The notes under the pieces: model-generated | Seen by the model: the letters and a program-made list of their open reading frames with translations, nothing else | Database searches by the model: none | Told to the model about the DNA's origin: nothing | Source of the DNA: Candidatus Tayloriibacteriota bacterium | Lineage (GTDB): Bacteria > Patescibacteriota > Minisyncoccia > Phycocordibacterales > CAIRYW01 | Direction: 5' to 3' | Length of the DNA: 64,000 nt | Assembly (NCBI GenBank): GCA_028286725.1 | Contig: JAQBQZ010000013.1 | Coordinates: 15,216 to 79,215, forward strand | Translations under genes and position numbers: made by a program | Shown: positions 10,743 to 17,703 of the stretch, piece by piece | Position numbering within the stretch: the first letter of the stretch is position 1 | Layout of the letters: the number at the start of each line of letters is the position of its first letter

Positions 10743-10814
10743 GGCGACTATAGTTTAGTGGCAAAACTCCGGTTTGTGGAACCGGTATCGAGAGTTCGAT
10801 TCTCTCTAGCCGCC
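10743..10814 (+). tRNA. tRNA-His(GTG) with encoded G-1 and C73
   Basis: Anticodon arm ccggt-ttgtgga-accgg; T arm gagag-ttcgatt-ctctc. Confidence 0.95.
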
Positions 10815-10872
10815 CATGATTTAAAAAAGAAAACACCCTCTGCTGGGTGTTTTCTTTTTTAATCACAGCGAA

Positions 10873-11104
10873 GCTAGAGAGAATCGAATGGCGGAGGCAT
10901 ATTTTCTGAGTACAGAAAATGCCGAGCCGGTGCCCAGGACAAATACGAGCGACGGCGAGTATTTAGTCCGCGGGCGATTCTCTCTAGCCCTCGGGGACTT
11001 GCGTGAGAGAATCGAAGCCCGATTGAGCAAATTTTGAGAGTGAAGCGAATCAAAATTTCCAATCGGGATACTGGTCGTGTAACGACCGATAGCTCTCTAG
11101 CCGC
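10873..11104. repeat. two tandem tRNA-His-linked structured units (scaffold A 10873-10989, scaffold B ~10993-11104)
   Basis: Inverted T-arm copies 10873-10888 and 11005-11016; direct copies 10975-10989 and 11087-11104. Confidence 0.85.
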
Positions 11105-11129
11105 TTCCCAAATCTGCTATAATTATCTA

Positions 11130-11750
11130 ATGACCACCCTCCCAATTATCGGTATGAGCCCAGGCAATAGCTACTTTAAATATGGAGTAGTAAAAGAATT
11201 ACTTCAGAAAGTTGTAGAGAAATATGGAAAAGCTGCAATCATGATTGCCGATGTTCCAGCGATTTCAACTTATGTTGCACTTGGGTATCCTCAGAATAGA
11301 GCAAGAAGGGATAAAGCTCTTCCTCAAGGTAATGCGCTCAAAAATAAAGTTAAGAAAGCTATGGTTGAATTAGGCTACAGCGCAGATCAAGTGATAATTA
11401 TTGATTGGAAAAATCAAATTGAAAATAATTCAGAATACAAAGAAAAATATAGTTTGATAGAAGGGTTGTATCAAACCAATTCTTTGTTTCAAAACGCTGC
11501 AGACGCTACGACAAAAGGTATATTGGCTGGCGCAGGCGAGGAGATTCTTGATTTACCTGATTCAATAAAAATCGCTGCGCATTATCTCTTGGCAGAGATC
11601 GCTTTTATGGAATTTGCTCCAGACTTTTTGAAAGTAAAAAAGGCTACATATATTTACCATAGAAGCTGGCCAGTATTTGAAAGTTATATAGACGGGAAGT
11701 TTGATGATAAATCAAAAGATTATTTAGGATTTGAGATTATTGAGATTTAA
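11130..11750 (+). CDS. tRNA-dependent cyclodipeptide synthase (CDPS, NYH-type); start likely ATG 11130
   Basis: GMSPGNSYF (catalytic Ser, Asn), YLLAE (Tyr, Glu), YIYH; TGCTATAAT 6 nt before the ATG. Confidence 0.85.
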   Translation: MTTLPIIGMSPGNSYFKYGVVKELLQKVVEKYGKAAIMIADVPAISTYVALGYPQNRARRDKALPQGNALKNKVKKAMVELGYSADQVIIIDWKNQIENNSEYKEKYSLIEGLYQTNSLFQNAADATTKGILAGAGEEILDLPDSIKIAAHYLLAEIAFMEFAPDFLKVKKATYIYHRSWPVFESYIDGKFDDKSKDYLGFEIIEI

Positions 11751-11817
11751 AAGTTATGAGAGGAATTACATTTGTTCAATTCTCTCCAGCCTTATTTTTT
11801 TTGCTATACTTTAAATT

Positions 11818-12411
11818 ATGGGCGACTATAAAACTATCATAAGCATTATTGCGGTTCTTCTCGTTCTAATTGGTTATTTTTCCTATATTCGCGATATTTT
11901 TAAAACAAAAACTACTCCTCATCTTTTTACGTGGTTCATTTGGTCACTTGCTGTTAGTGTTTCTGCCGCGTTACAGATCTTGGGAGGAGCGGGGGTAGGG
12001 GCGTGGACAACCATTGTGACCGCATTGGTCTGTTGTTTTATTCTCTTTCTTTCTTTTAAATATGGAGATAAAAATTATAGTAAGAGTGATATTTTATTTT
12101 TAGCTCTCGCTTTAATTTCTTTAGCGCTTTGGGTTTTTGTAAAACAGCCAGTCTGGTCAGTTGTCCTGATCGTCGCAACTGATATTCTTGGATTTGTTCC
12201 AACAGTAAGAAAGTCTTGGGATAAACCCTATTCAGAAACACTTTCAACTTATCAAATCACGGGCCTTCGTCATGCTTTGAGTATTGTTGCTCTTGAGAAA
12301 TTAAATATTCTCACACTTCTTTATCCTGTTGCTTGGACTTTGGCTAATATCCTATTTAGTATTATGCTTATAATAAGAAGAAAAATGATTAAGAGTGGAG
12401 ATCTGCTCTAG
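11818..12411 (+). CDS. multi-pass membrane protein (PQ-loop-like, conserved in CPR)
   Basis: YIRDIFK.KT.PH.FTW.IW and PTVRKSW.KP.SET repeats. Confidence 0.7.
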   Translation: MGDYKTIISIIAVLLVLIGYFSYIRDIFKTKTTPHLFTWFIWSLAVSVSAALQILGGAGVGAWTTIVTALVCCFILFLSFKYGDKNYSKSDILFLALALISLALWVFVKQPVWSVVLIVATDILGFVPTVRKSWDKPYSETLSTYQITGLRHALSIVALEKLNILTLLYPVAWTLANILFSIMLIIRRKMIKSGDLL

Positions 12412-13258: not shown

Positions 13259-13322
13259 AAATGCTTTGACGCATTGAAGAGAGGAATCTTACACCTTCAT
13301 TCGTTTCTGCTATACTTATCTC

Positions 13323-15818: not shown

Positions 15819-16130
15819 ATGATCCTCAATAATCTCAAAAAAATAACTTCAACAATTCTCGTTATCGCATCATTTATTTTTGGTGCGAATATTATTTATT
15901 CTTGGACTGCTCCATCAGGTACTCCTCCGACAGCTGATGCACCGACTCCTATAAACATCGGCCCTAATACTCAACTCAAGACTGGAGCGTTTGGAATAGA
16001 TGGTAATTTTTTGGTAGTAGGTAACACAGCATTCACAGGTAAAATAAAGATTGCTGACGGATCACAGGGTGCAGGGAAGTACCTAACATCAGACAAGGAC
16101 GGAAACGCTACTTGGAAGCAATTACCATAA
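15819..16130 (+). CDS. secreted WxxPxxxPP fibre-like protein (shaft only)
   Basis: Signal/TM, WTAPSGTPP, PIN..Q.K.G, KIADGSQGAGKYLTSDKDGNATW. Confidence 0.75.
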   Translation: MILNNLKKITSTILVIASFIFGANIIYSWTAPSGTPPTADAPTPINIGPNTQLKTGAFGIDGNFLVVGNTAFTGKIKIADGSQGAGKYLTSDKDGNATWKQLP

Positions 16131-16140
16131 TTTTCTTCAT

Positions 16141-16473
16141 ATGGATCTACACATACAGCAAAAATCTTTTCTCGATATCTTTCTTAAGACGCTTATTTAT
16201 CTTGTTCTCGCCTTTATTATCGTTTGGAGCAGTGTTGTTGCGTATGATGAATATGATATTTATGCAACGGTCTTTCCAGAAGTTATTCCATATACTCCTC
16301 CAGTAGCAGCACCTCTTACAGATTCTGAAAAAGCAGACATTGCAGAAAACCTCAACGCAACGACCACGGTATTTAAACCTGAAGATGCGGCACAAAAATT
16401 AAATGCTATTCCAAAACCAAAAAGCACTTTAACGGATGAAGAGAAAAATAAGATCTTGCAGGGACTAGAATAA
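16141..16473 (+). CDS. hypothetical membrane-anchored protein
   Basis: One TM; two LTD.EK..I...L repeats; in operon. Confidence 0.7.
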   Translation: MDLHIQQKSFLDIFLKTLIYLVLAFIIVWSSVVAYDEYDIYATVFPEVIPYTPPVAAPLTDSEKADIAENLNATTTVFKPEDAAQKLNAIPKPKSTLTDEEKNKILQGLE

Positions 16474-16477
16474 ATTT

Positions 16478-17068
16478 ATGAAAAGAAATATATACATCAT
16501 TTTGGCTTTAATTTTTCTCGGCGCTGGTGCCGTCAATCTTTATGCATGGAAAACACCGACTGCAACTCCACCTTCTCAAGGTGTTCAGCCACCAGTAACC
16601 GCTCTCATCAATGAACAGCTCAAAGCTGGAACACTTGGTGTAAACGGTATGTTCGCGGTATTCGGTAATGCTGTTTTGTCTGGAGGAGTTAAGATTGCTG
16701 ACGGAACACAAAAAGAATTCTATGTACTGACATCTGACAGTGCGGGTAATGCATCATGGAAATCTCTTCCTGCTAAGCCTGTAACTACACACAAGCTTGG
16801 TCTCGGGGATTGTCCAGCAGGTTCTACTAAAATGACTGATCGTGGGCTCGCATATTGTGGATACTGGGTAAACACTGGTGCGGCATCATATTGTAATAAA
16901 GGGGATCTTCGTATCGCCGCTGTTGATACAGGGACAAGCGCACACAAAGGAGGGAACCACGGTATAACACTTGCCGAGCCTAATGGATGTATCGGATGGG
17001 AAGGGCCAAGCAACTTTGGTGGCCCTGGATGTGCGGTACAATGTCGAACAACAACGGTATACCAATAA
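16478..17068 (+). CDS. secreted WxxPxxxPP fibre-like protein with Cys-rich tip
   Basis: WKTPTATPP, KIADGTQKEFYVLTSDSAGNASW, EPNGC...GGPGC. Confidence 0.75.
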   Translation: MKRNIYIILALIFLGAGAVNLYAWKTPTATPPSQGVQPPVTALINEQLKAGTLGVNGMFAVFGNAVLSGGVKIADGTQKEFYVLTSDSAGNASWKSLPAKPVTTHKLGLGDCPAGSTKMTDRGLAYCGYWVNTGAASYCNKGDLRIAAVDTGTSAHKGGNHGITLAEPNGCIGWEGPSNFGGPGCAVQCRTTTVYQ

Positions 17069-17073
17069 AATCT

Positions 17074-17703
17074 ATGAATAAAAAAATAAAAACATTAATA
17101 TTCTTGTCTACTGCGTTTGCACTCGTTGTTACTTTAAATGATGTAGTAACGTCTTGGGCTCCGCCAACATCAAGCGCTCCTGCAGGAGACACTGTGCCTC
17201 CAATAAATGAAGGATCTACTGCACAGAGAAAATTAGGTAACTTGGGTGTTGGAGGACTAGCATCATTTGGAGGCGCGACATTTACAGGTAAGGTTCAGAT
17301 CAAGAATGGTACAGAAGGCGAGGGAAGAATATTGGTCACTGATGGTGTGGGAAATACAAGATGGGTAACACCTCCTGTATATAATCCAAATGGAGCATGC
17401 CCAGACGGTACGGTGAAAAGAAGTGATGGGCAGTGCGGGTATGCATACACACTAACTAGTAGTGGATATTTTTACTGTTCTCCTGGTGATGACCGAACTT
17501 CTTGGTATGACTCAGGACAGGGACGAAATCACACTGCGGGACCACTCGAACCAAATGGTTGTTATGCATTTGAAGGAAGACACAACAACGGAGGGCCTGG
17601 CTGTACCATGACTTGTATTGGAGCTGTTAAAATGTGTATGAAGATTGTGAATGGGGATGCAGAGTGGTATCTCTCAGGTCCAGATAAGGTTTGTAATCAA
17701 TAA
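17074..17703 (+). CDS. secreted WxxPxxxPP fibre-like protein with Cys-rich tip (start likely 17074)
   Basis: WAPPTSSAP, PPIN, QIKNGTEGEGRILVTDGVGNTRW, EPNGC...GGPGC. Confidence 0.75.
   Translation: MNKKIKTLIFLSTAFALVVTLNDVVTSWAPPTSSAPAGDTVPPINEGSTAQRKLGNLGVGGLASFGGATFTGKVQIKNGTEGEGRILVTDGVGNTRWVTPPVYNPNGACPDGTVKRSDGQCGYAYTLTSSGYFYCSPGDDRTSWYDSGQGRNHTAGPLEPNGCYAFEGRHNNGGPGCTMTCIGAVKMCMKIVNGDAEWYLSGPDKVCNQ

Follow-up and report, generated by a model that had tools for sequence, protein, structure and literature searches.

Organization of the tRNA-His locus

The window (the whole stretch of DNA analysed, 64,000 nucleotides) is part of a 906-kb genome that consists of 14 contigs and is rated 100% complete. 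The small genome and the lineages in which its CDPS homologs occur suggest that it belongs to the Patescibacteria (CPR). Behind its tRNA-His gene there are two short units bounded by copies of the tRNA end, a cyclodipeptide synthase (CDPS) gene and further copies of the tRNA end, and the features are as follows (X, direct copy; X', antisense copy).

10744..10815, + strand: tRNA-His(GTG) gene; its 3' 22 nt (10794-10815) are the template X, and CCA is not encoded
10817..10865, + strand: hp1, a long, near-perfect, terminator-like palindrome, continuous with the tRNA/X' stem
10866..10888, + strand: antisense arm X' of unit A, which extends to tRNA position 54 and comprises a decayed anti-acceptor, the anti-T-stem and the anti-T-loop
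10889..10974, + strand: core A, a two-hairpin junction (AGTA and GACG loops) of a core family common to other tRNAs
10975..10989, + strand: direct copy X of unit A, tRNA positions 56-70
10990..11004, + strand: right half of hp2, the hairpin that normally lies between anti-acceptor and anti-T, from comparison with the list of hp2 sequences
11005..11016, + strand: antisense arm X' of unit B, anti-T, 12 nt
11017..11092, + strand: core B, a covarying two-stem module with a T[GTA]A loop and a 92% match at a different locus in the relative G010
11093..11104, + strand: direct copy X of unit B, 12 nt, tRNA positions 61-72
11115..11750, + strand: extended -10 promoter (11115-11123) and CDPS gene (11130-11750), 206 aa
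11758..11771, + strand: weak motif, X'-like or promoter-upstream, also at 13279
11774..11791, + strand: direct copy of the tRNA-His end, displaced, 16/18; its start is in the T-loop and it is island-end-like
11810..11828, + strand: antisense copy of the tRNA end and trailer start, 17/19

The two units had been described in a first-pass annotation as empty units of an integron-like array, and we found that they are structured tRNA trailers, which are made up of a palindrome, an antisense copy of the tRNA 3' end, a folded core and a direct copy. Both units fold far better than shuffled sequences (unit A z -9.0, unit B z -4.8), and unit B appears to have lost hp1 and its anti-acceptor. The Rfam scan of window positions 8-16 kb gave nothing above the cut-offs except the tRNAs.

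The copies of the tRNA-His end that had been placed at 10873-10888 (X'), 10975-10989 (X), 11005-11016 (X') and 11774-11791 (X, 16/18) were confirmed; the X of unit B, which had been given as 11087-11104 (18 nt), is a match of 12 nt (11093-11104). The 18-mer 10794-10811 has four matches with two or fewer mismatches in the 906-kb genome, and every one of them is in the tRNA-His locus. An order-3 Markov null expects 6e-5 such matches in 3 kb, so the copy at 11774-11791 is beyond chance. The first-pass annotation had also joined 11758-11791 into a minimal hairpin, but this fold was not significant (11755-11795, z -1.5; 16/200 shuffles). As an X' partner of 11774 the 11758 motif is only weakly non-random: by chance, an antisense match at one edit would be found 40 nt or less from X in about 0.6-2% of cases. 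Its 10-mer has eight exact occurrences in the genome. The look-alike reported at 13279 is present, and a stretch of 13-15 nt common to both places was found nowhere else in the genome, which is a post hoc pattern. The two motifs each lie upstream of a TGCTATACT promoter, so the 11758 stretch may be promoter sequence instead of X'.

The antisense copy at 11810-11828 is a possible relic of an older trailer. It overlaps the start of a gene for a 197-aa membrane protein, whose homologs often begin with MDY or MDI, so the match is partly explained by conserved codons and is only suggestive. The 11774 copy, perhaps with this relic, reads best as a displaced tRNA end and an old trailer.

The 197-aa membrane protein itself (window 11818-12411) had no Pfam or NCBIfam match. 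It has five paralogs in the genome, with paralogs at G000 C5:19117-19686, C3:5916-6482, C10:35306-35875 and C7:11725-12288, and four are within approximately 1 kb of a tRNA gene; homologs were found in 49 of 300 genomes of the class. Farther downstream (window 15819-17703), three tandem small secreted-looking paralogs are followed by a histidine kinase, and these are kept in the relatives G008 and G012.

The CDPS gene

Identification of the gene as a CDPS was borne out (PF16715, E 1e-28; TIGR04539 above cut-off), and so was its own promoter, which is TGCTATAAT at 11115-11123. The SPGN and YH motifs are invariant in 36 aligned homologs, the PDB matches are YvmC, BtCDPS and AlbC-type, and the protein, a predicted enzyme, is an ordinary new member of the family. 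The gene was absent from the 20 family genomes searched, and a class-wide search gave two weak hits in 400 genomes.

Alignment search gave 71 CDPS homolog loci. CDPS homologs adjoin Ser, Gly, Leu, Gln, Arg, Thr or His tRNAs in 9/73 loci, and with these varied tRNAs and the PDB matches above, a tie of the CDPS to tRNA-His through use of His-tRNA was dropped. None of the 73 loci matched the trailers of this genome, save one weak hit to the flank of a spurious tRNA, and this test is a weak one as most of the loci are from other lineages; in a motif-free test, none of seven tRNA-adjacent CDPS loci had a direct or inverted copy of the tRNA end. In five other lineages (L057, L071, L079, L096 and L122) the CDPS homolog starts about 100 nt or less from the tRNA 3' end, and no repeats are found there.

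The CDPS is most likely an ordinary passenger and not an integron cassette. It would have entered separately, by ordinary horizontal insertion at the tRNA-His hot spot, and the displaced tRNA end at 11774 would be the trace of that event; as in tRNA-targeted islands, a displaced tRNA 3' end (11774-11791) lies beyond the cargo. There is no recombinase gene among the ORFs at 9-16 kb, and the serine recombinase genes of the genome are on contigs C9 and C2.

Trailers behind tRNA genes of the genome and its relatives

We collected 281 tRNAs from the genome and eight relatives of the same family (up to 30 best Rfam loci per relative); 27 with less than 200 nt of downstream DNA were left out and one tRNA was skipped, and 254 were analysed. 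An antisense copy of the tRNA's own T-loop and T-stem was found within 260 nt downstream in 102 of the 254, while the upstream control gave 1/254; the nine genomes are kin, so these counts show prevalence and are not independent tests. The trailers sit immediately behind the tRNA genes, which is the position of TLRs (tRNA-linked repeats). The source genome has such trailers behind 20 of 34 tRNAs, and this recurrence of the layout, like the antisense copy at 11810-11828, had been missed at first pass. The alternating orientation of the copies, which the first-pass annotation had contrasted with ordinary tRNA islands, is not specific to this locus and is a genome-wide trailer design that the E. 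coli TLRs also have.

The arms are specific to the tRNA behind which they lie. Of 115 high-scoring regions, 99 matched the resident tRNA strictly better than any other; of the remaining 16, at least seven (Cys/Leu-TAA, Arg-TCG/Gly) are accounted for by the trailer of a neighbouring tRNA. Antisense arms also track variants of the T-stem and T-loop, tRNA-His orthologs included, and 10 of the 102 loci have two or three antisense arms, that is, tandem units.

Several other observations were made on tRNA genes and trailer-like modules. Two related structured modules with a trailer-type hairpin (G000 C4:19600-20100 and C12:40900-41400) lie away from called tRNAs, and at G000 C2:62700-63250 (minus strand) and C10:4363 there are trailer cores with tRNA-like direct copies and no full tRNA called upstream, which are possibly displaced trailers or split tRNA genes. 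ARAGORN gave the anticodons Ser(ACT), Ile(TAT) and 'Stop'(TTA) at G000 C14:21623 and 47260 and for tRNAs in G010, G015 and G017, several of them with trailers, and these are unusual anticodons or miscalled intron-bearing genes. Within one genus (G000, G006, G008, G010, G012-G015), a given isoacceptor, for example Arg-GCG or His, can have strongly divergent T-stem and acceptor sequences, which suggests frequent replacement of tRNA genes or their 3' ends. A viral collection gave 24 pattern matches, none of them with a tRNA call or a true core.

Anatomy of the units

The order in a full unit is hp1 palindrome, antisense acceptor strand, hp2, antisense T-stem and T-loop, core of 70-95 nt and direct copy. 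hp1 is a perfect palindrome of 16-25 bp that runs from the tRNA end and continues the anti-acceptor in 36/62 units. hp2 is at the position of the acceptor/T-stem junction (65/66); among the 78 units with both arms it is 20-26 nt long in 67 and missing in nine. Perfect arms (n=72) end at tRNA position 54 in 54 cases and continue in 18, and this 25% is the share expected by chance; the arm boundary at T54 is sharp. Direct copies, which are 15 and 12 nt long at tRNA-His, are 10-23 nt (one 50 nt) in the 47 units measured and reach position 74 or beyond (past N73) in 18 of them. Mismatches between arm and tRNA showed no wobble preference (G.T 16 vs A.C 13; 13 vs 11), as expected of copying followed by decay.

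Cores move between tRNAs

For 74/78 cores the nearest neighbour sits at a different tRNA, and two cores that follow the same tRNA in different genomes are no more alike than a random pair (0.59 vs 0.57); since only about 3% of core pairs share a tRNA, the equal means weigh more than the 74/78. Cores are common to different tRNAs and genomes, while the arms stay matched to the resident tRNA. The strict core-B pattern occurred 10 times in the source genome and in none of 300 other genomes of the phylum, and it is too narrow, since four or more other families of the order also have cores similar to core B.

The cores covary strongly, with 98% paired (0/500 shuffles) and, for 23 stem variants, 95% vs 40% in shuffled sequences. 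The commonest core loop is T[GTA]A (33 cases), which is a GNA triloop, typical of stable DNA hairpins. Cores fold better on the tRNA strand in 74/78 cases with RNA parameters, and one core pair is G.T in 43/50. DNA parameters favour the same strand in 77/78, and with this and the loop type the folded form may be RNA or single-stranded DNA.

Turnover at tRNA-His in relatives

Among 17 relatives, five have adjacent units at tRNA-His, three have a gene for a large serine recombinase (PF00239/PF07508/PF13408) that ends at it, and nine have neither. The units of the five have different cores, and their arms follow the local T-stem variant (one wobble mismatch). The closest relative, G008, shares hp1 (near-identical) and X' with the source genome and has another core at the position of core A and four other genes in the tRNA-His interval. 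An identical 166-bp X-to-X tandem was found in G032. The first-pass idea of serial acquisition is supported for the units, which are gained, lost, swapped and tandemly duplicated in relatives with boundaries in X, but not for gene capture through the hairpins.

In the relatives, large-serine-recombinase islands are the vehicle by which cargo reaches tRNA-His. One such island, 17.5 kb long, lies in G012 between tRNA-His and its hp1 and X', and in G008 a second His-specific trailer relic was found 1.6 kb downstream, after the sequence that ends the G012 island. In the source genome, trailers are displaced from tRNA-Ala by 8.3 kb and from tRNA-Ser(TGA) by 2.4 kb; displaced trailers were accepted by reading the sequence by eye, and regular-expression scans for core modules were noisy. 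The G012 island also has a reverse transcriptase gene and a bAvd-like gene (L033:3290-4736), a DGR-like pair.

The integron-like cassette array that had been proposed for this locus takes the X'/X hairpins as attC-like sites by which genes such as the CDPS are captured singly. It draws on the wholly different genes that G008 has between tRNA-His and the zinc-ribbon gene, on the second relic in G008, on the weakly non-random 11758 motif and on a leader of about 70 nt with a promoter, which stands before two different G008 genes (L032:9363 and 10133) and a third gene in G010 (L195:1577) behind tRNA-His and may be a hint of serial single-gene gain. However, the sequence before the G008 relic is the one found at the end of the G012 serine-recombinase island, the CDPS has its own promoter, and CDPS homolog loci have no trailer-type flanks (0/73 and 0/7). 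The units contain no RYYYAAC or GTTRRRY core sites (four segments, both strands), and there is no integron integrase: the sole PF00589 gene scored 129.7 bits on TIGR02249 (cut-off 265), and this only tyrosine recombinase of the genome is Xer-like (best XerD/XerC/XerA). Circular or skipping joints were not seen in a possible source run, which was searched as contigs that hide rare forms, and one low-support joint (side 20) was seen in another run. The integron reading is largely refuted, and we consider it very improbable.

How the trailers could arise and act

The probable reading of the locus is that it is a short tandem array of TLR-type trailer units with one passenger gene. The results above show how the units are laid out, that their arms are specific and sharply bounded, that cores are exchanged, that units come and go in tandem and that there is a strand bias; serial entry at the tRNA end, fold-back copying of the arm and processing of a trailer RNA are what we infer. 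A unit would enter at the tRNA 3' end and duplicate that end, and its antisense arm would be copied from the resident tRNA gene by fold-back (template-switch) synthesis. Later units would push the older ones downstream, where these would decay (unit B may be such a case), and recombination between direct copies could expand or delete units. If hp1 is read through, the unit would be transcribed as a tRNA 3' trailer, in which antisense and direct copies would close a helix like that of the acceptor and T-stem and so mark the unit for processing, and the core could be freed as a small structured RNA, which PMC8144298 reports for E. coli TLRs.

Against the model, no reverse transcriptase gene (12/20 relatives have one) and no Y1 HUH gene was found in the source genome. 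GIY-YIG genes are present in 21/21 genomes and lie inside a unit in 0/30 loci, and three are upstream of a tRNA.

Full-length folding predicts that on read-through the antisense arm disrupts the tRNA cloverleaf, so a role of the trailer RNA would have to tolerate pairing of the arm with the tRNA. The pairing could also be the function itself, in a cis-acting switch of tRNA maturation where a ligand or protein on the core would decide whether X' is paired with the tRNA (blocked state) or with the X downstream of it (released state); the arms would be kept matched by selection and the cores would move solely through gene conversion. This agrees with the stability of both alternative pairings, with arm boundaries at landmarks of the tRNA fold and with conservation of the cores on the transcript strand. 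But selection on pairing is hard to reconcile with arm mismatches that have no G.U preference, the core type is unrelated to tRNA identity, trailers are absent at the same tRNA in close relatives, and some were shifted by kilobases while the tRNA was kept, so we hold such a switch to be quite unlikely.

The folds could instead serve a DNA-binding enzyme of a selfish single-stranded DNA element, with RNA being incidental. Excision would turn the X-to-X unit into a closed rod, capped by hp1 and by the core, with hp2 extruded from the X/X' duplex. This rod would rebuild the double-stranded tRNA site on one strand, and a host recombinase or nuclease would reinsert it. Unit-length tandem duplication in G032, patchy presence at orthologous tRNAs (5/17 His loci), direct copies that pass N73 in 18/47 units and the preference of DNA parameters for the top strand in 77/78 are in line with this, and so are the GNA-type triloops and tandem GA pairs of the cores, both of which would be expected to stabilize folded DNA. 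However, a circle would bring the arms of its donor tRNA and foreign arms were essentially unseen, no candidate enzyme was found, and the search for circular or skipping joints gave only the one low-support joint outside the possible source run. We regard this element as unlikely.

A tentative extension is that TLRs as a class are mobile and generate their ends from the target, namely an antisense copy of the new tRNA's 3' strand and a duplication of the sense end. The template switch might then take place where the folded tRNA has its landmarks, at T54 and where the acceptor meets the T-stem, and we put both parts forward as possible rather than probable. If true, one mechanism would account for the E. 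coli repeats, unexplained since 1978, and for the trailers of Patescibacteria, and it would imply a fold-guided, target-templated insertion activity. About 100 natural variants with exact boundaries in nine genomes, in which cores move and arms stay matched to each tRNA, open two questions to testing, the writing of the arms and the action of the released RNA or DNA. It is odd that genomes of less than 1 Mb retain trailers on up to 60% of their tRNAs.

Comparison with known systems

Like integron attC cassettes, the trailers are tandem hairpin-forming units bounded by inverted arms, and folding of one strand could restore a duplex site from which an element is extruded; they differ in having no attC core motifs or IntI, and in arms that are copied from tRNAs, occur genome-wide and nearly always come without genes. 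tRNA 3'-end islands of large serine recombinases share the tRNA-His hot spot and leave a displaced tRNA end after their cargo as at 11774, but what remains after such an island is a single short direct fragment, with the trailer shifted away from the tRNA. Antisense arms and cores are not accounted for in this way, and the tRNA-His locus here is free of recombinase genes. REP/BIME and MITE-type repeats (GTAG and CGTC families; PMC3733652, in the part available) are likewise modular hairpin mosaics with purine-rich tips and loops containing GACG or GTAG, whereas the trailers are fixed behind tRNAs and have locus-specific arms, and the genome has no Y1/RAYT gene; the same part of PMC3733652 does not link REPs to tRNA gene ends. 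Membership in the CGTC/GTAG REPs, considered from the loop motifs, was not supported, and TRIP1 repeats are unrelated, as judged from passages of PMC10888264.

By layout, the known class that the trailers most closely resemble is that of the E. coli tRNA-linked repeats (RtT and kin). RtT/rttR of tyrT-tyrV (RF00391) and related repeats are also non-coding units behind tRNAs, in tandem and ending in a copy of the gene end. The available text of PMC8144298, which cites Egan and Landy 1978 and Rudd 1999 on TLRs, lists 22 E. coli TLRs at ten loci. A locus has one to five of them, the last 18-19 bp of every TLR repeat the end of the upstream gene, and only this direct copy is named as the hallmark. 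PMC8144298 describes TLRs as having no known function, or none assigned since their first description, and reports that three TLRs at rRNA operons (rrA/rrB/rrF) are transcribed and processed; the mode of action of RtT is called unknown in the preprint 10.1101/2024.07.17.603846. For trailers of this kind in Patescibacteria we found no description in the literature searched, which was mostly without subscription papers, Rudd 1999 among them.

The order of antisense arm, core and direct copy is common to E. coli TLRs and the trailers, and Rudd 1999 may already mention the antisense arm. In MG1655, antisense matches of 9-13 nt are paired with the direct copy at tyrV, lysQ, lysT and argV; at argQ and proK no 10-mer test was passed and shorter antisense matches were seen by eye. 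A core is common to the Tyr, Lys, Arg and Pro loci, with a terminator-like hairpin at lysQ and proK. Also, the X-to-X spacing of unit A equals the period of E. coli tyrT (178 nt), possibly by chance. The trailers appear to fit the TLR class by layout and not as members of RF00391, which gave no hit in the window and in 0/31 genomes (the E. coli control was positive), and trailer cores scored at best 29-31 locally against those of E. coli, with maxima of 26-31 for shuffled sequences, which shows no clear homology.

The trailers differ from the E. coli TLRs in an antisense arm that spans the acceptor, T-stem and whole T-loop to T54 with a hairpin at 65/66, in a perfect hp1 palindrome that runs into the tRNA, in a direct copy that is often shorter (10-23 nt) and without CCA, and in having several unrelated core families. 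They are also more widespread, with 20/34 tRNAs in the source genome compared with the ten E. coli loci of PMC8144298. We regard the trailers as a much expanded, new variant of this old and unexplained class.
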